A DNA stretch of 61,808 nt, from contig MU006093.1 in NCBI GenBank assembly GCA_010093705.1, positions 1,447,301 to 1,509,108 of the forward strand. The letters run 5' to 3'. The position numbers and the translations under genes were made by a program. The DNA is from Patellaria atrata CBS 101060 (Eukaryota). The first letter of the stretch is position 1, and the number at the start of each line of letters is the position of its first letter. The notes beneath the pieces were generated by a model. The model was not told the DNA's origin. It was given only the letters and a program-made list of their open reading frames with translations, and did not search any database. This document shows, piece by piece, positions 25,801 to 61,200 of the stretch.

Positions 25801-26417
25801 AAAGTGATAAATATCTTTCGGAGCGAATACTAGGGTTTTGACGGGTGGTGTGAAGGCACGCGACGTTTTAAGTAGAAAATTCATGGGACAATACCCTGAC
25901 TCAATTGAATGAAGAAGAGTAACTGCTTGCAGCGTACACGATAGATTTCATATGGACGTGTATGGGCGTAAGATTGCTGTATAGACTGAAGTAATGCTTC
26001 TCGATGTAGTAGAACGAAAGTGATAGGTGATCCTGTTCTAATACAGCTCCCTCGCCTTAATACTATTAATCTGTGAGTGCAATCTGTAATACTTAAGATC
26101 AGAGGTGTCTTAAACCGAAGTCGGGGCGCAACGTACCATTAATAGCAATCGCTTTATGGAACCAAATGTCAAAATTCTTACTGCTCAATCAAAACCATAA
26201 TATAGTAACCCCAAATGGTAAGCCATACTGCTCAGTCAAAATCACAATCAGGCATATAATCCCCCTTTTTCCCTGAGATTTCTTCTTCAGAAATCCAAAC
26301 CTTGAAACTCAACACACACATTAACAAAAACACATAATCACAATCAAGTTTACACTCTACCTACTTCATATACAAATTCACAACCCATTCTACCCAACTC
26401 TACTATGCCCTATCAAG

Positions 26418-27347
26418 ATGTACAGAGATTCAGCTGTCGAAACATACTATACCAAAGCACTCGCTGCCGTGACTCCGTGCGAAGAGTGTACAATGTCCGA
26501 CTGCGTCTCCAAAGAATCCCAGTCGGAATGGGAAGCAGACGAGATTGACCGACTACGGGCAATACTTTGGTACGAGATGAGTTGCCACAAAGGTCACAAA
26601 AGATGGTGGAACGTGAAGGACTTCAAGACAGTATCCAACGTCCGACACAAATCCGTACAAATATACATACAAAATGAGTTGAAAAGATTACAACACCTGC
26701 ACGAGGAGGGCGTATGGGGTGAAAAAGAGCTGGTACAGCTTGTCCGAGTGAAGGGACAGGCGGACGAGCTTGGGAGATACCTTGGCGTTGCGAAAGCTGA
26801 GGAGGACAACGAGGAGGAAGAAGAGGAAGAAGAGGAAGAAGAGGAAGAAGAGGAAGAAGAGGAAGAAGAGGAAGAAGAGGAAGAAGAGGAAGAAGAGGAA
26901 GAAGAGGANNNNNNNNNNNNNNNNNNNNNNNNNNNNNNNNNNNNNNNNNNNNNNNNNNNNNNNNNNNNNNNNNNNNNNNNNNNNNNNNNNNNNNNNNNNN
27001 NNNNNNNNGAAGAAGAGGAAGAAGAGGAAGAAGAGGAAGAAGAGGAAGAAGAGGAAGAAGAGGAAGAAGAGGAAGAAGAGGAAGAAGAGGAAGAAGAGGA
27101 AGAGGAAGAAGAGGCAGGTGGCGAGATGGTAGAGGAAGACGGAGAGGAGGATGAAGATGAAGAGATGACGGAGGGTGCAGAAGATGAAGATGCGGATGAG
27201 GATGAAGAACACTCGGAGGCGGGCGAAGATGAAGAAATGTCTACGGGTACCGATGATATGATGGAGGATGAAGATGGAAAATTTCCTATGGATGCGGAAG
27301 ACATGGTGAGGACTGACATACTTCTACCCACGGGACTAGGGAATTAA
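26418..27347 (+). CDS. Orphan ORF with very long poly-glutamate/acidic C-terminal half (spans an assembly gap)
   Basis: ATG after a CA-rich leader, about 130 aa unique N-terminus with CEEC..C, then a (GAA/GAG)n tract and an acidic tail; frame across the gap cannot be verified. Confidence 0.55.
   Translation: MYRDSAVETYYTKALAAVTPCEECTMSDCVSKESQSEWEADEIDRLRAILWYEMSCHKGHKRWWNVKDFKTVSNVRHKSVQIYIQNELKRLQHLHEEGVWGEKELVQLVRVKGQADELGRYLGVAKAEEDNEEEEEEEEEEEEEEEEEEEEEEEEEEEEEEEEXXXXXXXXXXXXXXXXXXXXXXXXXXXXXXXXXXEEEEEEEEEEEEEEEEEEEEEEEEEEEEEEEEEEEAGGEMVEEDGEEDEDEEMTEGAEDEDADEDEEHSEAGEDEEMSTGTDDMMEDEDGKFPMDAEDMVRTDILLPTGLGN
26811..27113 (+). repeat. (GAGGAAGAA)n 9-mer tandem repeat interrupted by a 100-N gap (26909-27008)
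   Basis: Near-perfect 9-bp periodicity on both sides of the gap. Confidence 0.95.
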
Positions 27348-39419: not shown

Positions 39420-41114
39420 ATGCTGAGTAGACGGAGTCATGTCTGCTGGAATAGGCGATTCGCACTTTTCCGCACATTTTATACCAACTTATTGAAGATG
39501 GACAAAAGAACCTACCAAGATGCGCTTGAAGCGCTCAATACGCTTCAGTCCAACTTCGCCGCCGTGCAGGCAATTCGCGATTCGGGATTCGCTGCGCACA
39601 AAGTCGCAATACAAGAGATGATTGAGTGGTGTAGAAAGATAGGTTATGAGGTGTGCGGCTCCCCCCATACTATGTCATCCCCACCGTTTGAGTATTCGCT
39701 GAGTTCCTCCAAGCCCTCGGATTTTGATCGTATCAAACCGATACATGTAGCTGGTACTAAAGGCAAAGGCTCTACCAGCGCGTTTATCTCCTCTATCTTG
39801 ACGCAGTATCGCCAACCTACTACTCAATCCTCACCTAGACTCGACAAAGTTGGACTGTTCACTTCTCCTCATCTCCGGTTTGTTCGCGAACGTATCCAGA
39901 TTAACAATGAGCCATTATCAGAGGAGCAGTTCGCCCGATACTTCTTTGAGCTCTGGGATCGTATGGAGATGGCTTCTCCCACTAAAGATGGGGGTAGCGC
40001 GGTGCAGAAACCGATGTATTTCCGTTATCTTACGTTGATGGCATTACATGCATATTTCTCGGAATCCGTAAATACAGCGATTATAGAATGCGGTATAGGA
40101 GGCGAGTACGATAGTACAAATGTCCTAGTCCACCCAACCATCACAGCAGTTACGAGCTTAGGTATAGATCATACGGCAATGCTAGGCTCAACGATTGGAG
40201 AGATTGCATGGCAAAAAGCAGGAATCTTTAAACCAGGAGCACAAGCTTTCACAGTTCCGCAGCCAGAAGAAGCTATGAATGTTCTAAGACAACGCGCATC
40301 AAAGAAGGGCGTGGACCTAGTTGTCGTAAAACGCCATCCAGACCTCGATAAAATTACACTCGGTCTCCGTGCTGATTTTCAAAAAACAAATGCGAGTCTT
40401 GCAGTTGCGGTTGCGGCGAGCCATCTCCGTGCTTTAGGGTACACGAATATTCCAAATTATCCCGAGCTTCTAAATCAACCGCTGCCACCTGAGTTCAGGC
40501 GCGGCTTGGAACAGGTTCGATGGCCAGGTCGCGCTGATATTCGTAAGGAGAACAATATCACATGGCATCTTGACGGATGCCATACCTTAGAAAGTATCGA
40601 ACTTCTAGGTCGCTGGTTTTCTGAGCAAATTGCATTGTCAGATGGAAAGAATGCTTCACCATCTTCCGGTCTCGATATAGAGAGAGCAGTTGCAAGGCAC
40701 ACCCGTATTCTGGTCTTCAACCAGCAGACCCGTGATGCAAACGGACTCGCTAAGTCTTTACATCGCGTCCTTTCATCATCTTTATCTTCGTCCCAACCGT
40801 TTACACATGCAGTCTTCTGCACAAACACAACATATCCATCTGGTTTCAATCCCGATTTGATATCGTTGAATGCAGATTCAATATCAGTAGATGCCCTAAC
40901 GGTACAAAACGCCTTAGCGGAAATGTGGAAGAAACTAGATGGCGCAACGGAAGTAAAAGTTGTTAAGTCTATAAAAGACGCTCTTGACTGGTGCAGAGAA
41001 GTTGCAAGCACACACGGATACCAGAAGGGGACTGACAGGGAGGTCGAAGTGCTCATAACGGGGAGTATGCACCTTGTAGGTGGTGCACTTGAGGTTTTAG
41101 AGACTGGAAATTAA
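39420..41114 (+). CDS. MET7: Folylpolyglutamate synthase (Met7/Met-6-like); probable in-frame intron 39651-39713
   Basis: RTYQDALEALNTLQSN, IHVAGTKGKGST, LFTSPHL..VRERIQIN, ECGIGGEYDSTN, WPGR, LITGSMHLVGG; exact orthology among FPGS paralogues not tested. Confidence 0.88.
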   Translation: MLSRRSHVCWNRRFALFRTFYTNLLKMDKRTYQDALEALNTLQSNFAAVQAIRDSGFAAHKVAIQEMIEWCRKIGYEVCGSPHTMSSPPFEYSLSSSKPSDFDRIKPIHVAGTKGKGSTSAFISSILTQYRQPTTQSSPRLDKVGLFTSPHLRFVRERIQINNEPLSEEQFARYFFELWDRMEMASPTKDGGSAVQKPMYFRYLTLMALHAYFSESVNTAIIECGIGGEYDSTNVLVHPTITAVTSLGIDHTAMLGSTIGEIAWQKAGIFKPGAQAFTVPQPEEAMNVLRQRASKKGVDLVVVKRHPDLDKITLGLRADFQKTNASLAVAVAASHLRALGYTNIPNYPELLNQPLPPEFRRGLEQVRWPGRADIRKENNITWHLDGCHTLESIELLGRWFSEQIALSDGKNASPSSGLDIERAVARHTRILVFNQQTRDANGLAKSLHRVLSSSLSSSQPFTHAVFCTNTTYPSGFNPDLISLNADSISVDALTVQNALAEMWKKLDGATEVKVVKSIKDALDWCREVASTHGYQKGTDREVEVLITGSMHLVGGALEVLETGN

Positions 41115-41680
41115 GTCTCTTCCTGAACAAAAGAGAGGAATCGTAATGGTCTGTTTACTCACATTGGGACTGAAGGCAGAATCGCTCTCTAAGCATTTCA
41201 ACAGCTTTTAAGGTGGTATAAAAGGGGTGGATAGGAGCCACGGGAGCATAATTTAGGCGCTGTAGAGGGCATGGAGCGCAAGCTCAAAAGATTCAACACT
41301 TTTAAGGCCAATACCTAGCTTAAGAACCTGTATACGATGTTCAGCTGATAAAGTTAGGATTTGTACCCTTTTTCTTGAGTGCCTAGGGTATGGTGAACAT
41401 GTACCATAAAGGGAGTACTTCCCAAAGAGGCAAGTCCGAAGCTTCGCACGTGATCTCTGATTCCACCTCAGTTCTCGTCCTGTGGTCCAGACCATACCTT
41501 AATTCCCCACAATCACAGCAATTATCATTGTCTCTATTCTGCTTGATCTACTACAAGATCGTTTCATCAAAAGGAGTTACAGCTCGTGACTTTCAGATTA
41601 TTGGTAATCTCGTACTGAACAACACATTCTACTATTTCGCATGCATGAGGGTTGGGTCCATATTAAGAAGTTCACATAGA

Positions 41681-43239
41681 ATGGAAAAGACGTATGAAGT
41701 AAAGATCAGAAGCTCTGGCCGTGTGATATCTTCTAATATCCTCTAGAATGCTTTATTGATTCTAAAAAGTAGGGTACGGCCACAGCGTCCAACTAGGGAT
41801 ATTTCTCTTAGAGGCGATGTTCCCCAAACAATTCCAATCCGTAGGGACTCGGACTTTCGAGGGACTCCAAGCATCATTGGCATGTCAAAATGGCTCCAGT
41901 GGCTTGGACATGACGATAAAGATATCAGCCGTTTAAACATTATCCATGTAGCCGGCACAAAAGGCAAAGGTAGCACTTGTGCCTTTGCCGAATCCTTTCT
42001 CAGAGCACATGGTCAACGAACAGGATTTCCTCAGAAAACTGGAATGTATACATCACCGCACTTGCTCTCTCCGGAAGAAAGGATCCGAATAAACTTTCAA
42101 CCAATCTCACGGGATCTCCTGACAAAGTACTTCTTCGAGGTATATGAAACATTGAAAGAGAAGAGCCCGCCAGAAGAATTTGGACGTGTTCCCCGATATC
42201 TGCAATTATGGGCGCTTGTTTCATTTCATACCTTTCTCAGAGAGAGAATCGATGTAGCTATTGTCGAAACTCACCATGGAGGAGAGTATGATGCAACGAA
42301 CTTTATCCAACATCCAGCTGCTACGGTAATTGCAAAGCTGGGGATGGACCATATAGCGCAACTTGGGCCTACAATCGAAAATATCGCGTGGCATAAAGCT
42401 GGGATCTTCAAACCGGGAGCTCCAGCGTTTTCGACCTTCCAGGCGCCCTCACTTGCAAAAGTGCTCGAGACCCGTGCACGGGAGAAAGGTGTACAGTTGA
42501 AATTTGTTTCCGACGAAACTGACCTTCCAGATGATACTTTAAAACTGACATCTCACGTCCAAAGACAGAATGCCGCACTAGCTCTTGCTGCTGTGGAAAG
42601 CGTACTAGACCGACGTGGGTTGAAGCTCACGCGAGATGATGTCGAAGTTGGGGCACAACAATTTTCGTGGCCTGGTCGGTTTCAAATAATCAATGACGAT
42701 GCTCAAAAATGGTTTCTAGACGGAGCTCATAACGATATTAGTGTCAGAGAAGCTGCTAGATGGTTCGCTGACGCCCATATACTGTTATCGCGGGAGCACA
42801 ATCCCGCACTGCGTGTTCTGATATGGAGCCAGATCTCCGACCAAAGGGAGAGTCTAGAAGTACTTGAAATTCTAGCGAGGACTCTGAAAGAGTACAATGT
42901 ACCAATTCAGCATGTTATATTCAGTACATATAATGAACATGAGGGATCGGGTAAGTATATTGTTCAAATGCTTATAATGCAAGATCGGGGAATTAACTGG
43001 TAATAGGGACTTCGTCTCGCCGTGGAATTGATATCCACGATCTTTGGCAACAGTATTCAGATAAGTGGAGATCCGTTGATCCGGATGCCCGCATCTACGA
43101 GGAACCCACAATCGACTCCGCGATGTTGCAGGCGCAGGAGCTCTCAGCATCCGAAGGAGATGCGCATATCTTGCTAACGGGAAGCCAGTATCTTATTGGT
43201 GGTGCGCTTCGCATTTTGCAGAGAAGGATCAAGATTTAG
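41681..43239 (+). CDS. Second, divergent FPGS/FolC-family (Mur-ligase) protein; introns 41699-41746 and 42951-43006
   Basis: MEKTYE|NAL, IIHVAGTKGKGSTC, YTSPHL..EERIRIN, ETHHGGEYDATN, IAWHKAGIFK, WPGRFQ, LDGAHN, last exon LLTGSQYLIGG to TAG. Confidence 0.9.
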
Positions 43240-43468
43240 TTGAATCGGGATATACCCTTCGGCTACCACATTTAAGAAGGTCGCTCTATAGATGAGCATT
43301 ATCAATTGTTCAGCGTATCGTAAGTGCCCATGTTTCATATCGCTGGTTTATTTGGAAATGGTGTCTGAATATGTATATTAGGCCGTTACGACTCGTTACT
43401 GATCATGTTATAACTTCTTTATCATAACCAACTCGAACGAGATTTAGATCTCAACTGCTATACGGCAA

Positions 43469-45421
43469 TCAAAGAACAGCGACCCACTCCCAGTGGTCAT
43501 CTACACCGACTATACCATCCGCCATCAGGACCTCCCCATCCATGATCCCAGAGATAAAAGCCTCCCCAACAAGTCTCATCTTTGACCCTTCCCGTCGTAG
43601 GATATAAGGAACACTGGCTCCCCTTACGATGCAAATCGAGTCTTCTCGTTCTGTACGCTCTGGTACGAGTCCGATACTTCCTGACGTTGTCAGAGCTGGT
43701 CTCCTTTTCAAAGCGGTAACTTTGAGTTGCTGTTCATAGTCTCCCAATCCCAACTCTACCAGATCAAGGTTGTCGATATTGACTGAAGTCAGGTCGCCGA
43801 TCTGTTCTATTAGTTGGTTCACGACGATTCGGCTAAGTCGGTCCTTGGCTCTTCCACGTCGCAACGCCTGGTCTGCTACTGCTGTCTTGTATACAGTACG
43901 CAAATCTACCATGGAGTTTTCTGCACAGCAGTCCTTCCTTAAACCCGTTAAACCATGCAAATCTTTGAGCCACTCACCCACGTTGTGATGCTCTCCCCAC
44001 TTGCGGCCTAACCTACAAACTTTCGAGACTATTCGAATATAGACTAATAAGTCCCTTTCTGTATCAAAATTTACCAGTGGAAGCTTTCTTGGTGGCTCTA
44101 GCGGCGCCAAACCACCCGATGCAAAAAAGGGAGGCTGCATGACCAACTTCGGCAACTGTGAAGAGCGGTCGGTTGCACATTGCTGGAGCATATTACCAGG
44201 TAAAGGATTAGACCAATCTGGTACCCACGAGGGCAAATTTCCATGCCTCTTATAGGAATTGTTCATAGAGAGTATTTCATATAATCCTTTACATATCAAA
44301 GCCCTAGCGGTCTGTATGAAGACGTGTTCCGTGGACTTGGAGTAATCGGAGAGAATTCCTAGGTCCTCGCTGTCTTCGGAAATACCCAAAAATGCGAGAA
44401 CCTTATCTCGAGGGTCAGTCGACTTGAATCTCGATAACCGGCGAATGAGATAGATGAGTGGAGAAATTTCCTTAGTTCTTCTTACTTTTAGGAGATCGAT
44501 TGCGGTGCTGGGATTTATTTCTAAGAGAGCCTTGTTTTCAGCTCCCCCGTGCAGGAGGAAATAAAGGCGATAGTTCCGTATCAGACGAAGGGCATAGTGA
44601 AGCGATTCCTCGGGCACTGATTTCGTTCCGCAGGCGAAAGAAATGCTACCAGCAACAGTTACCTCTTGGACCACCCATGCGCGCTCCCAGTACGGCCGAC
44701 GAAGCAAAGAATGGAGCGAAGATACGACAGAAACACCATTTCTCCTCTTGAAGGAAACCTCTAGATCCTTTACGAACGCATCAAGAGCTGCTTCCGCTAT
44801 ATCCAACTCCGGTACAGAATTCAGTTCATCTGGTGTCTTTCCTGTCATATTCCTCTTCCTCCTTCGCTCGCATACGCTCCTCAATTGTAAAGCAGGCGTG
44901 CTTCCGATCCTCAACTCTCTCGCCTTGCTACCAAATGCTCGAATCCACTCCATCGCTTCATCACTCCCCTCACCACCAGGGCCCAACCATGCCACAACTT
45001 CCGTCGCACGCTCATATATTTCTTTCATGCGTTGTACCTGCTCACTCTTTTCCACCACATCTTCTTGGTTAATACACAGCGCATCCGCCCACAACATAAT
45101 AGGCTCATCTTGAGATCGAAGATGGCGTAGCGCTTGGTCTAGGTTCGCCGTCACTGGGACTCGTACGTTGTCCACGGTTATATTTCGCCGTCCGCCACCT
45201 TGGCACCACGCATACGAGAGCGCAATATAGGATGGTGCTTCATGGAGGCTGAGGACATGGAGACGGCAGAATATAGGTGAGCTTAGCTGCACGATACTGA
45301 GGCAGGTCGAAGACTTGAGGATGCTCTCTTGCAGTGTGAATTTCTCACGAAGGGGAAGGAGCTCGAGAAGACGGACTTGGTGGAGAGGGGGAAGGAGGGG
45401 TTCATAGTGGTACGAAGTCAT
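43469..45421 (-). CDS. Heterokaryon-incompatibility (HET) domain protein, HET-6-like, intronless
   Basis: YIALSYAW, LWADALCINQ.D..EKSEQVQRM..IY..A..VVAWLG, YWERAWVVQEV, TDPRDK, LPSWVPDWS, LVGEAFISGIMDGE. Confidence 0.95.
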   Translation of the reverse strand: MTSYHYEPLLPPLHQVRLLELLPLREKFTLQESILKSSTCLSIVQLSSPIFCRLHVLSLHEAPSYIALSYAWCQGGGRRNITVDNVRVPVTANLDQALRHLRSQDEPIMLWADALCINQEDVVEKSEQVQRMKEIYERATEVVAWLGPGGEGSDEAMEWIRAFGSKARELRIGSTPALQLRSVCERRRKRNMTGKTPDELNSVPELDIAEAALDAFVKDLEVSFKRRNGVSVVSSLHSLLRRPYWERAWVVQEVTVAGSISFACGTKSVPEESLHYALRLIRNYRLYFLLHGGAENKALLEINPSTAIDLLKVRRTKEISPLIYLIRRLSRFKSTDPRDKVLAFLGISEDSEDLGILSDYSKSTEHVFIQTARALICKGLYEILSMNNSYKRHGNLPSWVPDWSNPLPGNMLQQCATDRSSQLPKLVMQPPFFASGGLAPLEPPRKLPLVNFDTERDLLVYIRIVSKVCRLGRKWGEHHNVGEWLKDLHGLTGLRKDCCAENSMVDLRTVYKTAVADQALRRGRAKDRLSRIVVNQLIEQIGDLTSVNIDNLDLVELGLGDYEQQLKVTALKRRPALTTSGSIGLVPERTEREDSICIVRGASVPYILRREGSKMRLVGEAFISGIMDGEVLMADGIVGVDDHWEWVAVL

Positions 45422-46374: not shown

Positions 46375-48345
46375 TTAGTTCGCGCTATCCGTAACCGCCG
46401 AATGGGTACTCCATCCACCCACCCAGACTGGGAAATCACTAGCCGACTCGGCCGGCTTAATCTCGATACTCTGGACCACGACCTTAAAATCCGGGACGTC
46501 CGTCTTCGGCACGATAACCCCCTGTCTCTGGACCTCCCAATGCAGATTCTTAGCTAGATATGCAACCACGGTCTCCTCATCGAGGCTCTCCAGCTCACCG
46601 GACTGATGCTTCTTCGCGAGCGCCTGGGTCAAAACGACGGAATTGGTGATCACAACGTCATTATCCGGTGTATACGGATTCGACATCGAGGTCTGGGCAC
46701 CGAGGAAGTTGGGGTCCTTAGCCCAGGCCTTGGGATCGTGGTTGAAGTCGCCGAGGAAGAGGCCGACGCTGAAGGTGCCCTCGAGGCCGATCCAGGGCAT
46801 AGAGACCTTGGCGACATAGTCGCGGGGCGCGGTGGAGCTGCCATCAGCGCGCTTGGTGATGATACCTTGAACGGTACTGCCGTAGAGGGCATTAATTTTC
46901 GCTTTGAGGGTGTCGTTAGTGGCACCGACGAGCTCGGGGTAGGTGTATCCGAAGTTTGTGATGCCACGGGAGTTGGCGGAGGTGAAGAATGAGCCTGCCG
47001 TGTCCCTGTGGAAAGGAGTCAAGTTGGAGTTTGCGTTCTGGGAGCTCCCTTTCTTTATGGTGTACGTGGGACCCTTTTGGCTAGCGGATTCGACATAAGT
47101 TGATGGATAGAGCGCTTGCCAAAGAGCAAGCATGCGGTCCACATTGCAGTGATGAAGCCAAAATGCGGGATCGAAAGCTGCTGCGGGGGGCCAGCCCATA
47201 TGTCCACTGCCAAAAGCGCTGTGGATGTTGTCATGAAGGGATTCAAGATTCCCAATCGAGCCTCCCGAAGCCTTGTTGCTGAAGGTTTGGTACTTCTGTG
47301 TCTGAGTGAACAACTTATATAATTGGGCACGGTTATAATTGAGATTGCCTTTCAACTCCTTTTCTAAGGCAGCATCATTGCTCACGGCGCTGGCTGTTGA
47401 AGAACTGGGCTGGCGTAAAGTTGTTTTCCACTCATCAAACGGTGGCATATTCTACAAGGTATTAGACGACTACAGAAATTGACATCCGCGCTGGGAAACT
47501 TACATTATTAGGATCGGGGAAGTCAGCAGCCCGTAGGGGATTGAAATTATAGGTATACAAAGGATTCTGGATGGTTGCTGTAGTCCCATTCGGATAGGTG
47601 ACAGAAATGGTCTTTGTCGACATGCTTGCCGGCATGACTGTTCCGCCTGCAGGATCAATCGCCCAATCCCAATAAGGGAGACGTAGTTCATTTGCCGCAG
47701 CGACGTATTTGTCTTTGTTGGTACCAGCGGGAAGAGCATTTGCTATTTCTTTCGCCTTCTGCTGAAGTACTTGCTATATTGATGTCAGTTGCAATTCAAG
47801 ATTGAGCGCATCTTAACATTACCTCAAACAGGACTATGTAAGGCTTATGCCACGGCCCGAATATATTGCTCCCGTGGGGACAGTATCCCCAATTTCCTGA
47901 TCCCGAGACCCGGTCCCAGGCGGAATACGGTGCGCCATGTATCCCTTATTGTCCCGTTAGTTAAAAAAATACCAACTGACCAGAGCGCACCGAATCCAGA
48001 CTGCCGGAACGATAACAATGATATGGATGCTTCCATCGGAGGCGAGAGGAGGAACCTACCGGCAATCTGATAATATGATTCCCGGGTCGTCTGGTCCATA
48101 GCCTTGAACCTCTCCATTGCTAGAAGGAAGAGATTCCACATCTCGGGTTTTGTGGAAGCCAAAGTACGAATCTCGAGGCGAGGTTGGACCCCTCCATCCG
48201 TCACACCAGTAATAGCGAAGTATTGTTGCTGCCGCGACTTTATTGCGTGTGGTAGTTCAGAATTGTGCTCTAATGGCAGAGCGAGAGAGTATTTAAGGTT
48301 TAGTGATGCTGCTAGGAAGCAGACAACCTTAGAGAAGGAAACCAT
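46375..48345 (-). CDS. Secreted tyrosinase (type-3 copper) with C-terminal cap domain; three introns
   Basis: Signal peptide; spliced CuA GIHGAP..GYCPH..FGPWHKPY; LRLPYWDW; CuB LESLHDNIH..GHM..AAFDPAFWLHHCNVDR; FGYTYPE. Confidence 0.94.
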
Positions 48346-51314
48346 AAAGATTCTGAGGTCTCGAGTAACCCTCGAAACTGGTAGAAAAGATGAACGAACG
48401 ACTTAATAGAATTAAAAAAGAGCTCAGAATAATAATGAATCAGAGAAAGTCATGGTATCTTGAGACCTCCCTGGACATTATATACTCTCTGGCCGGACCA
48501 ACTGAAGTACAATTCAAAACCATGATACAACATATCTAAAATTATCAGACCTAACTTCGTTCTAATTATTTTTCCTGGCGAGTGCATATGTCAGACTATC
48601 GGATGTCCCGAATGAGCCTAACAGGACGGTTAGGTAAGAATATTTCGGGTTGGCCCTGGACTGTCAGACTAGGAATGCGGTGCACCACTTACGTGACTGG
48701 AGAGAATATACTCCATTGGACTGAATTGAAGCAAGAAGTGTAGTCTGACAGCTCAGCAGTCAGCACTGGATGTGTGATCTGCCTACTGCGGGTACTTGCT
48801 TGAAGCGCGCAAAGGCTCTGTTAGGCAATGGCCTCATGCACGAAGAGTTAAACACACGGTCGTATGGGTTAGTCCTGATCACATATGGAAATTGCAAATT
48901 AGTTTCGACAGCCTAGAGATGTCGGGAAGGCTTCTAGAATTGGACGACAACTCTCTTTCAGCTAGTTGATATGCCGGTAGCTGCGCTGGCGCTGCGTTTC
49001 ACAGAAGCTTTTCTTTGGTTTATCCGGTCGTCGTACTCCTACGAGCCTTCGACCAAGGATCCGTAAGTTGTTGTAAGAAGGGGAACTGAGTCAGAGCTGA
49101 TGATGATCTCCTTGATCCTAGGGGACGGGACGCACACCCGCTGAGCTGGAAAGGTGGAATACCACGAATTTACGAATTCACGATGAGGTGATGTTCTTTC
49201 AAGCCGGCGAGTGTTGTACCGTATATTGTATTGTATATTTTAACTGTCTCCCTCGGCTGAGGTCTTTGTAGACTCAACTGAAGAAGGTAAGCTTTGCGCA
49301 GCTAACCAAAACTAGCTTTGATTAACCGTAAGCTTATTAGCGCTGCTATTATCTAGATACGCAAAGACGGAGGATTTTGGTTATTTTTAATGACTTCCTT
49401 TACAAAACTTCATCTACTGTACTTAGATACAGTACCTACTTGATGCCCACCTTTGGATGCCGTAAGACACTCGACAGCAAACATCTGGAGTGAGGATTGT
49501 GTACTGTACAGTTAACTACAAACTCACCGAGCACGGGTATACGGACGCGTGCTAGAACCACTTAATATTGGCCTGCTGCACGTCTTCTCTCTATATTAAA
49601 TGGCGCGGCTAGAATTCTCGATTGCGATATCATCAATCATCAATCCGTTCGTCTAGCACAAGCGCCTGTATTGTACGTGGTCCCTGTTACTCCTGTAGGA
49701 CTACAAAGGATCCCGAGCGGTTCGTATCGCTCTCGTCGATCATTTCGCTTTCTCCTGCTCTCTGTAATAAAATGCACTACAGTCTTTATGTCAGTCCGTG
49801 GCTTGATAGAGAGAGGTCTGGATGCTGGTCTGAGCGATTGACTGATGACCTTTGACCCTTTTTAACCTCCATCCTCTTCTTCTCCAAGTTCTTCCAATCC
49901 AAGTTCGATTTCCTCCGATTTAGCCAGTAATAACAATGCATCGGCTGGGCGGCTTTTATGTTTCGAATTCTGATAGTTCTACAGCTGAGAGCGTGAGTGA
50001 TACATATTATTTCCGATCCATCATCCAGGATAACACGAGGCAGAATCATAAGGCACAGTCCAAGCTCATCTAGGGCTCAGTCTGGTTGCACACCCCATCT
50101 ATTCTCGCCCAGTTATCATGCGTAGACCTTATGAGGTGACCCTGTAGGCAGGTAAAGGCAATATACCATGTGCGAAGCAGCCCTTGGGATTGGGATCTGA
50201 TCGTCGCGTTCGTACCGCGGAGACCAATCTATTGCAACATGCACATTCGGTACGAGGGACAAGAGTTTAGGCGAAGAGAATAACATTAAAGAATTACACC
50301 ATCTCTATCGTCAAGTTAGCAATGCTTAATAAAGATCACTTAGGGACAATGCTCAGAGTCCTTCGAAGGATGCGTCTGATACCGATCGAGTGCTAATCCA
50401 GGTGTCTCTTTTCTCGCTACTTTCTCTGCACCGCCTGTACTTCGAGAGATGCATACAAGCCAGGATTTGAACCGATCGGCCTTGGAAGTTATGTCGATCT
50501 CGCCTGGTATGGCTACTACTAAATACAGAAGCACACATCTATAGACTCAAATTTTATGCCGGAACCAATTAGCCTTCATTGTGGGTACTCGTTTGATGTT
50601 TGAAAAAGAACTTCTAGATTCTGACGGGAAACAGTCGACGACAAGACTGGCGGGTGATACGGAAGAAACAACGAGAACGGATTCACCGCCGCTTGATTTA
50701 CCATGGAAGAGTGTAATAGGACAACTGTACGAATTTTGCATAGTAAGCGCGTGGTACACTATATTGTAGGCTGTAAGTACATAAACTTCAATTGCCACCA
50801 CAATCATAGAGTCAACCCCATTTGTCCCAAAGCACAGTGAGATGTTGTACTTGACCAGAGTTGGAACACAATCTAACGTGAGGGAGCACTATCGCACGGG
50901 TCCAATAATTTCGTCAAGAAGTGGGAGTTGACCTACAGGCTACACGTGTGTGTCCGGATTTCCGTTATGGATTATATCAGAACGGTTCTATAATACTAAA
51001 TAAGGTGACAACGATGTCGACGTTACACTTTCCACGGTTATGGAACCCACCAGAAATCCGAGAGATCAACCTTTAGAGTGCATTTTTCAATCCCCTAAGA
51101 ACTTTTGTACGTACTCGTACATTTGCTCGCAGTTCCAACCAAAGGGTTGGACGTTCGGTACCGTTAAGCTTACAAGAACACTAAATATATGATCGCACTT
51201 CAATTTCATTTACTCAGTTACATTCATTCACACTAAGAACAGACTTCCCGTTTCCCAGGTTCTTTCTCGCTCTTCAATTTCCTCTCAGGAACTTTCACAT
51301 AAGACACTGCATCC

Positions 51315-58268: not shown

Positions 58269-61200
58269 TGTAACAGGCTAGAGCCTAGTGGTATGAGCGC
58301 GCCCTGCATCCGAAGATCAGCCAGTAATATTTTCCTCAAACCTGCCTTCAGACTCTTCTCTNNNNNNNNNNNNNNNNNNNNNNNNNNNNNNNNNNNNNNN
58401 NNNNNNNNNNNNNNNNNNNNNNNNNNNNNNNNNNNNNNNNNNNNNNNNNNNNNNNNNNNNNNNNNNNNNNNNNNNNNNNNNNNNNNNNNNNNNNNNNNNN
58501 NNNNNNNNNNNNNNNNNNNNNNNNNNNNNNNNNNNNNNNNNNNNNNNNNNNNNNNNNNNNNNNNNNNNNNNNNNNNNNNNNNNNNNNNNNNNNNNNNNNN
58601 NNNNNNNNNNNNNNNNNNNNNNNNNNNNNNNNNNNNNNNNNNNNNNNNNNNNNNNNNNNNNNNNNNNNNNNNNNNNNNNNNNNNNNNNNNNNNNNNNNNN
58701 NNNNNNNNNNNNNNNNNNNNNNNNNNNNNNNNNNNNNNNNNNNNNNNNNNNNNNNNNNNNNNNNNNNNNNNNNNNNNNNNNNNNNNNNNNNNNNNNNNNN
58801 NNNNNNNNNNNNNNNNNNNNNNNNNNNNNNNNNNNNNNNNNNNNNNNNNNNNNNNNNNNNNNNNNNNNNNNNNNNNNNNNNNNNNNNNNNNNNNNNNNNN
58901 NTGGGCCCGGCTGAGAATCACTAACTTGTTGTGATGGTAGGGGATCACTTGGTACTGGATGTAGTAGGTCTACATGGAATACTGGGTGGATCTTTCCAGG
59001 GACGTTGAGTTGGTATGAGTGAGAATTCACCTGCTTAACAACTTGATACTTCGAGTGCAACCAATCCAGCTTCTTTGACGGTCTTGGGGTTTTGACATTC
59101 TTCAAGTTCAAAAACACCCAATCGCCTTCTTTATATCTCGGGGAAGCTATTCTAGTTTTATTAGCATAGTGTTGTTGCTTTTCTTGTGCCATCGCTATGG
59201 CAGCTTGAGCCCATTCTGTTGCATCTTGAAGTCTTTTAATAAAGTCTTCTGCTAGCACCTCACCATCTTTCCTTGTTCGATCCCGGATAGTGCGTTCTTC
59301 TACAAGTTGGATTGGCTCATTATGATATCCATGCATGAAGAAGAAGGGGCTCAGTCCAGTCGATGAAGACTCTCGATTATTGATTCCTCCCATGACAATC
59401 GGTAGTAGTTCCGACCAATTCTCCTGCATGTAAGTTGCCCAAATGCGAATCATCTTCTCAATCTCTTGGTTCATTCGTTCTGTTGCGCCATCCGTCTGAG
59501 GATGATATGCAGTTGATAAGCGCTGCTTAATCTTCAAAAGCGTGCAGAAATGTCTCCATAGGTCACTAACGAACTGTGGGCCTCTATCGCTTGTGATTGC
59601 GTTGGGGATACCATGAACAGGGTAGTGGCGTTCAAAGAGTCTTTATGCAACCTTTTCAGAGGAGATATCGTGCATACTTTCTAACTCAACTCCTTTCGTT
59701 AGTCGATCAGTGACTACCATGCAGTTTGTAGCATTGTCCCGTCCAGACGGTGGTAAGTCGGTGATAAAATCAATTGAGATCTCTCCCCAAATGCGTTCTG
59801 GTATCGGTAGTGGCTTGAGGAGCCCTTTCTTCGACTCTCTCCAAATGGTGTTTCTTCCACATACTTCACAATTCCGGACGAACTGTCGAACATTGCTTGC
59901 AGCACCTGGCCAGAAGAATTGCCTTGATAGAATGGTATAAGTAAGGTCTCTTCCAGGGTGTCCAGTAATGTGAGAGTCGTGAATGTTTTGGATTATACGA
60001 GTACGCAATGGTTCACTACCAGGAATCCAGATTCTTCCACGAAATTGTAGCAAGCCTCTATCCTCTAAAGTACACTCGGTAATACTTACAGACTTCTCCT
60101 TTTGAAGCGTTATTGGTAGGTCTCGTCCTTCATTTGCCACTAGAACTGTCAACTCCTAGTAGAGCTGGTCTTCCTATCGGCTTTGGTGCCAGAGCTGTTG
60201 CATCTCTTCGTTCTCAAAGAGTGGTACTTCTTTAGAGAAGTCAACTTTAGCTGATAGAGCATTTATATTTAGGACTCTAGTGCTCTTAAGATGTTTGTTC
60301 TGGAAGAGTTGTATAAAACGTGATCGTAGCCTTTCGTCGTTATAGTTATTTGGAAGGTCCTATTCACGACGTGATAGCGCATCAGGTTTACCCATACTTG
60401 TTCCTGGTTTCCATTCCAGAGTGAAATTAAATCTTGCAAGAAACTCTGACCATCGTACTTGTCTCTCGGATAGCTGCTTCTCTGTGTAGAAGTACCTTAA
60501 ATTCTTATGATCAGTCAAAATGGTGAAGTGCTTAACCATATGTAGCTCCGGTTCCCAGGCTTCTAAGCACCTTATAATAGCAAGTAATTCCTTATCATGA
60601 ATTGGGTAATTGGCTTCAGTAGAAGAATGCTTTTTTGAATGATACGCAACGGGTTTCCAGATACCTGCCTTATCTTTCTGCAAAAGTAAACCACCAGTAG
60701 CATAACCAGACGAGTCGGCTTCTATTAGTGTCTCCATATCTGGGTCAAAGTGAGCTAAGATAGGTGCGGTGATAAGTAACTCCTTTATCTTTTCAAATGC
60801 TTCATCACAAGGCTTATCCCATCGAAAGGGGACGTCCCTCTTTGTAAGATCTGTAAGAGGCCTTGCAATATCCGAGAACTCAGGTATAAAAGTCCGATAG
60901 AAGTTTGCAAACCCTATAAACCCTCGAACTGTCTTGACGGATGACGGTGTGGCCCACTCCCGTATTGCAACAATCTTTTCAGGGTCAACGCGGATCCCAG
61001 TTTCAGCTTCAATAATAAACCCAAGATATTTGACCCTTTTAGTCTCAAATTCGCACTTTTCAATATCGATCTGTAGTCCGGCGTCCATTAGCCGTTGAAG
61101 AATCTTTCCAACTTTATTTCGGTGGTCTTTAAGGGTTCCTGATGAGTAGATAAGAATATCATCTACATATGCTGAGACAAAATCGTCTAGATAATCTTGA

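Follow-up and report, generated by a model that had tools for sequence, protein, structure and literature searches.

Introduction

Among the fungal cell-death and incompatibility systems described so far, four come closest to the locus reported here. The het-B locus of Podospora anserina consists of Bh, a HET-lectin gene, and Bp, a PII-like gene, and PII-like/HET pairs vary in orientation and involve several receptor lineages including NLRs (PMC10890737). In Neurospora crassa, het-6 is tightly linked to un-24, the gene of an essential ribonucleotide reductase (PMC3618301). SEC-9 is guarded by PLP-1 (PMC12881547), and 80% of the fungal gasdermin/protease pairs, represented by het-Q1/het-Q2, lie within 10 kb (bioRxiv 10.1101/2021.06.03.446900). 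In this study, we analysed 61,808 nucleotides of Patellaria atrata CBS 101060 (contig MU006093.1, positions 1,447,301 to 1,509,108 of the forward strand; this whole stretch is called the window), in which a divergent folylpolyglutamate synthase (FPGS) gene, FPGS2, lies between a canonical FPGS gene, FPGS1, and a HET-6-like gene. The vic6/pix6 pair of Cryphonectria is reportedly a further case for comparison.

By the criteria tested, the locus resembles the PII-like/HET, het-6/un-24, PLP-1/SEC-9 and gasdermin/protease systems and is a member of none of them. As in het-B and the PII-like pairs, a HET gene lies beside the gene of a small-molecule-binding, non-toxic partner, the linkage extends across fungal classes and more than one receptor lineage is involved. 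Unlike in these pairs, the partner is an FPGS of Mur-ligase fold and not a PII-like protein, and the C-terminus of the HET protein is of the Het-6 barrel type; het-B is known with an allelic series and incompatibility, whereas the FPGS2 module is known from its genes alone. The linked share also differs, with about two thirds of the well-flanked FPGS2 genes as against about 5% of the PII-like genes (PMC10890737). The likeness to het-6/un-24 is that of a HET-6-type architecture tightly linked (229 bp in the window; about 0.6–1.5 kb in six further groups of loci) to the gene of a nucleotide-precursor enzyme. In contrast to essential un-24, FPGS2 is a patchily distributed paralogue beside an intact canonical FPGS (PMC3618301); it forms a separate clade that includes pseudogenes and is not the essential housekeeping gene itself, and the window's HET protein has just 28–29% identity to a protein named HET-6 OR (P0196). 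PLP-1, an NLR with a TPR sensor, has been proposed to guard a protein of housekeeping type and thus resembles the NLR in the FPGS2 branches with that partner, described below (PMC12881547), whereas here the watched protein would be a dedicated enzyme paralogue, the effector is SesB-like and not patatin, and in one branch a HET protein replaces the NLR. With het-Q1/het-Q2 the locus shares a constant gene that is mostly clustered with one of two clade-sorted partner types and is occasionally re-associated; the constant gene there is the executioner, while FPGS2 has no known killing activity.

No literature linking FPGS to HET/NLR incompatibility systems was found in a search that left subscription papers and supplements, including neighbour and domain tables, largely outside. 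The word 'folate' is absent from the main texts of PMC10890737, PMC12258605 and PMC9815663, and 'folyl' from the latter two. The results presented here point to an apparently undescribed two-gene defence module based on FPGS, which is broader than an earlier note on this DNA had proposed and whose function we infer from genomic context.

Results and discussion

The arrangement described in the earlier note, a canonical FPGS followed by a co-oriented divergent FPGS and a convergent intronless HET-6-like gene, was confirmed at positions 39420..45421, and open reading frame coordinates place the two convergent stops 229 bp apart (spacer 43240..43468). FPGS2 (41681..43239, + strand; 484 aa) was assigned by the folC profile, homologues and tree to a divergent FPGS subfamily with the motif E-T-H-H-G-G-E-Y-D. 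It runs from the ATG at 41681 to the stop at 43237–43239, with exons 41681–41698, 41747–42950 and 43007–43239. Sequence and homologues indicate two introns on the + strand, intron 1 (41699..41746; 48 nt, GT-AG), the splicing of which would link MEKTYE with the main exon in the same arrangement as in homologues, and intron 2 (42951..43006; 56 nt, GTAAGT-TAG). The public model of this gene (P0004) looks wrong, as it starts at an internal Met, reads into intron 2 and has 373 aa. The HET-6-like gene (43469..45421, − strand) is a single 650-aa frame from the ATG at 45421 to the stop at 43469–43471 (PF06985, E=4.8e-28). Its product has the HET-6-like architecture of an N-terminal HET domain (aa 65–253) and a Het-6 barrel C-terminus, separated by a clade-specific middle region; the public model P0124, a 363-aa partial with an internal piece omitted, looks wrong as well. 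FPGS1 (39420..41114, + strand), of the ECGI lineage according to TIGR01499 folC and its tree position among canonical fungal FPGS, has its ATG at 39420 and its stop at 41112–41114. Its folC score of 286.9 bits and that of FPGS2 (267.8 bits) both exceed the curated cut-off of 162.65. A probable FPGS1 intron (39651–39713) has 63 nt and is in-frame and stop-free, so that the unspliced form is still open. Of the two in-frame ATGs at 39420 and 39498, the latter follows a presequence-like N-terminus, and the two starts may allow dual targeting. Two sequencing runs of one sample, perhaps the source of the window, equal the window across all three genes with 0 differences.

The HET-6-like protein belongs to a small clade that recurs beside FPGS2. 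A homologue search gave 669 matches, of which 19 exceeded 270 bits (including the window's own record) and the next reached 229 bits. The aligned clade members carry common clade-specific motifs, among them an invariant W-x-R-x-W-x-x-Q-E253; PF26639 was found at the C-terminus of nearly all close relatives, and Atlas placed this part in Het-6_barrel clusters (0.99). For FPGS2, a scan of metagenome contigs for its motif yielded 91 loci, 80 of which were flanked and fell into 52 groups at 90% nucleotide identity; after exclusion of L084 and L105 (36–38% identity), 50 groups remained, and partners were visible within the flanks, i.e. within at most 10 kb. In six of these groups a HET gene of the clade lies about 0.6–1.5 kb from FPGS2: convergent as in the window in L050, divergent in L061 and L069, and upstream and co-oriented in L039, L046 and L056. 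Fusarium pseudograminearum supplies the fourth arrangement, so that all four orientations are known, and two models from this species join FPGS2 and the clade HET in one frame, as fusions or merged neighbours. In Dendryphion nanum, both genes (KAH7119931.1 and KAH7119933.1) come from source contigs of equal size. The remaining neighbour genes differ at each locus.

The microsynteny comparison proposed in the earlier note was thus positive, with the HET clade adjoining FPGS2 in Dendryphion, Fusarium pseudograminearum and the six metagenome groups. The same note, pointing to the abundance of HET genes, had kept chance adjacency as a real alternative, and 65–132 HET genes per genome (PMC10890737) give any gene, by our estimate, a HET neighbour by chance in about 1–2% of cases. 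The same small clade, though, was found in at least eight other places in several classes, and FPGS2 is an old subfamily, not a freshly duplicated FPGS. In a 35-Mb genome, a single-copy gene would have a chance of about 3 in 10,000 of falling within about 5 kb of any one locus. Chance does not account for the adjacency, because the same small HET clade recurs beside FPGS2 in fungal classes other than the Dothideomycetes, to which P. atrata belongs; this recurrence has refuted the chance explanation, and we give it almost no weight. In the six full pairs, FPGS2 and HET identities are correlated (Spearman 0.90, reached by 1 of 720 permutations), and this correlated divergence shows co-inheritance, not contact. 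One more candidate pair, P0125 (HET) and P0092 (FPGS2), both on contigs of length 6277, was rejected as a probable coincidence: the L050 HET matches P0125 at 96% identity, whereas the L050 FPGS2 and P0092 reach just 56%; this candidate was labelled HET-linked in the 125-row tree described below and relabelled in the 73-row tree.

FPGS2 is not a recent tandem duplicate. Its identity to FPGS1 is 37% in a local alignment, as compared with 49–59% to its relatives, which span Dothideo-, Sordario-, Leotio-, Eurotio-, Lecanoro- and Pezizomycetes (best 120 of 7643 matches). In both a FastTree analysis (125 rows, without short-flank loci lacking a partner and loci with an open frame below 200 aa) and a quick IQ-TREE analysis (73 rows, without L084 and six near-duplicates), FPGS2 forms a single clade with a support of 100, apart from the two canonical lineages ECGI (including FPGS1) and EVGM/ETGI. 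Judged from these alignments, FPGS2 is an old subfamily of the Pezizomycotina with the motif E-T-H-x-G-G. A canonical FPGS within at most 4 kb of FPGS2 was found in the window, in L036 and in L069, for which reason the FPGS1-FPGS2 tandem may be left over from the duplication that gave rise to FPGS2. The canonical gene adjoins FPGS2 convergently in L036 (L036:9429-12484) and lies on the far side of a Memo gene from it in L069 (L069:9438-14921); a short FPGS remnant was seen near FPGS2 in L091 (L091:6540-6701). FPGS paralogues are clustered elsewhere too, as the 1007-aa model P0333 contains two canonical FPGS in tandem (EVG type and ECGI type). In one series, individual metagenome assemblies carry four or five different FPGS2 copies (L022, L025, L053, L101 and similar sets). 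A Pyricularia folylpolyglutamate synthase, not assigned to an FPGS subfamily, is among six positively selected genes, with Ka/Ks 1.51, in Table 3 of PMC6293661.

The ATP/Mg core of FPGS2 is intact. In a comparison of 113 FPGS2 with 84 canonical rows, the P-loop (GTKGKGS), E180, D188, D207, H208, K223, N281, R317, D331, H334 and S467 are 93–100% conserved, and E180, D188, H208 and K223 align with E143, D151, H170 and K185 of L. casei FPGS. The P-loop and these conserved residues presumably serve ATP and Mg binding. The predicted model has the FPGS fold, and all top Foldseek rows were FPGS/FolC (E 5e-21 to L. casei FPGS). FPGS2 thus shares fold, P-loop and metal/ATP residues with FPGS/FolC (TIGR01499) and differs from it by its fixed changes and immune-type gene neighbours, by the presence of several copies in one sample and by the frequency of pseudogenes. 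The canonical E-x-G-[IVM]-G-G loop is absent owing to G182H in 113/113 rows, the canonical Y-F-R-x-x-T helix is altered by F158L, R159Q and T162A, and T335N, N367S and N401Y are further fixed changes at sites conserved in canonical FPGS; we take these positions to face the folate site. Ratios of nonsynonymous to synonymous substitution rates (dN/dS) in the core exon were 0.06–0.32 in 15 of 17 pairs, and the two higher values (0.51 and 0.89) came from pairs with pseudogenes. FPGS2 is under purifying selection, with its ATP/Mg core kept and its folate side altered, and would be an enzymatically competent paralogue. Of the proposal in the earlier note that a spare FPGS is the partner or decoy of the HET protein, the partner role stands as the best reading; the spare local duplicate had to be given up for the identities given above, and a catalytically dead decoy is ruled out by the intact ATP/Mg core and the mostly low dN/dS.

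FPGS2 is paired even more often with a second partner. An all-against-all comparison of the flanks revealed one recurring NLR/TPR family beside FPGS2 in 14 further groups. Full NLRs with P-loop, NB-ARC/DUF7779 and TPR occur in five of them (L034 group, L068/L078, L082, L090 and L091), four of which have an N-terminal motif that we take to be SesB-like, with none listed for L090. These NLRs have the fungal composition of N-terminal effector, NB-ARC and C-terminal TPR. In the other nine groups the partner is shortened and keeps, next to the TPR domain shared with the full NLRs, just a winged-helix-like part. As the TPR profile was derived from these same loci, its scores are circular; the recurrence itself came from the unguided comparison. 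A homologue search for the TPR family, based mostly on one subfamily, gave 28 matches. In Gyalolechia, the TPR gene and FPGS2 occupy consecutive loci (Q9188_001287/001288), and a sister species has one merged model. No other gene family was recognised as recurring in more than three groups around FPGS2. The AAA_16 neighbour in L035 proved on inspection not to be an NLR. Other immune-type neighbours are an unrelated HET gene (L054:819-2912), ankyrin-repeat NLR-like genes (L063:3-3848; L090:1-2809) and a DUF7580 gene (L092:5762-7722).

Counting both partners, 20 of 50 groups are linked, many of the remaining ones being too short. With flanks of 3 kb or more on each side the share rises to 14/19, and with 5 kb or more it is 10/15. 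The two partner types are sorted along the FPGS2 tree: all nine HET-linked rows lie inside one 31-row subclade (support 83–85), and the type switches only twice over 25 labelled rows. When the tree is rooted on canonical FPGS, the NLR tentatively appears as the older partner.

The HET domain suggests what this partner may do. Its model matches TIR domains weakly (Z 5.9–6.0, root-mean-square deviation 3.5–3.8 Å over about 100 residues), which would agree with the literature proposal of a TIR-like death domain; it matches nucleoside deoxyribosyltransferases too (Z 5.7–6.0). In a Foldseek search of the whole model against the Protein Data Bank, nothing was found at E<=0.001, and no lectin fold was among the fold-search matches, although these searches hardly probe the C-terminal part. 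The match to deoxyribosyltransferases would also suit a purely metabolic pairing uninvolved in cell death. The HET protein, with its TIR/deoxyribosyltransferase fold, would then hydrolyse or transfer nucleotides, and FPGS2, which looks active from its residues, would be the ligase of a small two-enzyme pathway. Such a pathway would leave the replacement of HET by the NLR in most FPGS2 branches unexplained, and no further enzyme or transporter recurs near the pair, so we regard it as quite unlikely.

Broken loci bear on the relation between the two genes. For decay (REARRANGEMENT), four loci combine a broken FPGS2 with a visible partner site (L017, L032, L058 and L075), and the partner is broken or absent in all of them. 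The reverse state, an intact FPGS2 core with a broken or absent partner, occurs in L026, L073/L076, L050 and the five partnerless groups listed below, while no intact partner beside a broken FPGS2 was seen among the loci with a visible partner site. A receptor that does harm when FPGS2 is missing would be expected to leave such a pattern. In L022, L053 and L072, FPGS2 and the TPR gene are the sole shared content; therefore, the pair moves as a unit. Rearrangements were seen at further loci. Compared with L025, the FPGS2 segment of L058 (L058:9198-11056) is inverted in place, which disrupts the 3′ end of the TPR partner. Around FPGS2 in L073 (L073:6000-11300), L034 and L017, identities form a mosaic: L034 matches L017 at 95–98% far upstream and L073 at 97% next to FPGS2 (L017 there 74–87%), the L017 FPGS2 matches L073 at 98%, and an ankyrin-repeat gene lies inside the divergent stretch. 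The mosaic hints at possible haplotype sharing in other fungi.

Linkage might also have arisen without functional coupling, either because the genes were co-inherited or moved together or because both gather in variable parts of the genome where HET and NLR genes abound. Retroelement remnants near L050, L053, L082 and L091, the other HET type near L054 and the ankyrin-repeat NLR-like genes near L063 and L090 would suit this explanation, as would the intermixing of Pleosporales and Hypocreales in the FPGS2 tree, which fits transfer or hidden paralogy. Against it, the partner always comes from two specific families, in every orientation and with all other neighbours turned over, down to the loci L022, L053 and L072 with just FPGS2 and the TPR gene in common. 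Several loci also lie amid housekeeping genes, namely MRPS8 and FPGS1 in the window, Memo, INSIG and AMMECR1 in L069, NF-YA in L025, and Ras and Whi5 in L028. We therefore consider uncoupled linkage improbable.

The explanation that we favour, with our confidence in it evenly balanced, is an old cell-death module of two genes, in which the HET gene supplies a receptor and FPGS2 the partner that it guards or recognises; PII/HET (het-B) and SEC-9/PLP-1 are precedents. FPGS2 would have come from a duplication of the housekeeping FPGS early in the Pezizomycotina and would then have been turned into a dedicated receptor partner. In most sampled branches, the receptor would be an NLR (SesB-like hydrolase, NB-ARC, TPR) or its shortened winged-helix/TPR form, and in the one branch to which the window's gene belongs it would be HET-6-like, with a death domain resembling TIR. 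This receptor would contact FPGS2 and monitor its presence, its conformation or its bound folate/ATP state, and loss, modification or allele mismatch of FPGS2 would release the death domain and kill the cell, the role of the module being non-self or damage surveillance. Neither receptor would need FPGS2 as an executioner, because the HET protein has a TIR-like domain and the full NLRs have a SesB-like domain.

Several observations weigh against such a guarded FPGS2. A simple guard model fails to explain the shortened TPR partners, in which no P-loop or known effector was seen on inspection, and five of the 15 well-flanked groups (L021, L036, L037, L043 and L081) have no partner in reach. Partnerless FPGS2 stays under purifying selection (dN/dS 0.12–0.19) and therefore has its own function or an unlinked partner. 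A single accession series (JAABU) contributes eight of the 14 NLR/TPR groups as well as four of the five negatives; outside it, five of six well-flanked groups have a partner. No matching FPGS2 was among the listed matches for the clade-HET genomes of Rhynchosporium (2), Oidiodendron, Fusarium sp. Ph1 and F. phalaenopsidis, and three JGI contigs (15–103 kb) with a clade HET are absent from the 91 scan loci; these may be devoid of FPGS2, their motif may have been missed, or they may lie outside the scanned collection. The FPGS2 gene and the TPR gene detected in Cercospora kikuchii sit on separate contigs. The decay pattern is based on two related locus families, and at five further loci with a broken FPGS2 (L020/L087, L089, L104 and L106) the sequence does not show the partner side (the flank of L029 is short). 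The correlated divergence of FPGS2 and HET is also expected from co-inheritance alone. Co-folding without alignments of FPGS2 (401 aa) with HET residues 265–650 scored 0.00 twice and was counted neither way.

The main rival explanation has the roles reversed: FPGS2 would be the downstream enzyme, switched on by the NLR or the TIR-like HET sensor in the manner of a gasdermin and its linked protease; as an ATP-dependent ligase with an altered site, it would mis-tail or trap folates, leading to one-carbon starvation, or make a signal molecule. FPGS2 is constant while the partner type changes, its linked share (10/15) is nearer to that of the gasdermin/protease pairs (80%) than to that of the PII/HET pairs (about 5%), its catalytic core is invariant beside fixed folate-side changes (G to H in 113/113, F158L, R159Q, T162A, T335N, N401Y), and the shortened TPR partners are without a recognised effector of their own. 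This assignment has to face the HET and SesB-like domains, which are presumed effectors in their own right, and the partnerless FPGS2 kept by selection, since a pure effector would require an unlinked activator; moreover, FPGS2 has no known product or activation site. We rate it as rather unlikely, if deserving of attention. Slightly more doubtful is that FPGS2, as a repurposed folate ligase, is an immune enzyme shared by the NLR and the TIR-like HET protein, with a modified folate or glutamylated signal arresting or killing the cell; if true, it would be a folate-based counterpart to defence by depletion of NAD or nucleotides. Guarding of FPGS2 by its partner remains our preferred reading.

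The flanks of the three genes contain MRPS8, a mitochondrial ribosomal S8 gene, and, directly upstream of the HET-6-like gene, a tyrosinase gene with introns (46375–48402, − strand) whose N-terminus is predicted to be signal-like. Elsewhere in the window, Gypsy-like integrase pieces were found beside an N gap (58317–60155, − strand), as well as an open frame coding for a very long stretch of glutamates that an N gap interrupts (26325–27347, + strand). In viral contigs, 0 HET relatives were found, and the single FolC-like match was taken as an outgroup.

Conclusions

Few HET genes have a known partner or trigger (PMC10890737). FPGS2 is a specific candidate partner for one HET clade and for one NLR family across the Pezizomycotina, with the receptor swapped on the same partner. 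Most fungal NLRs are orphans as well. This candidate makes the guard hypothesis and the activation of the HET domain testable with two short genes. The findings also suggest that many proteins bearing the annotation 'folylpolyglutamate synthase', in genera such as Aspergillus, Penicillium and Fusarium, are something other than the housekeeping enzyme, and that fungal immunity watches or uses folate metabolism.

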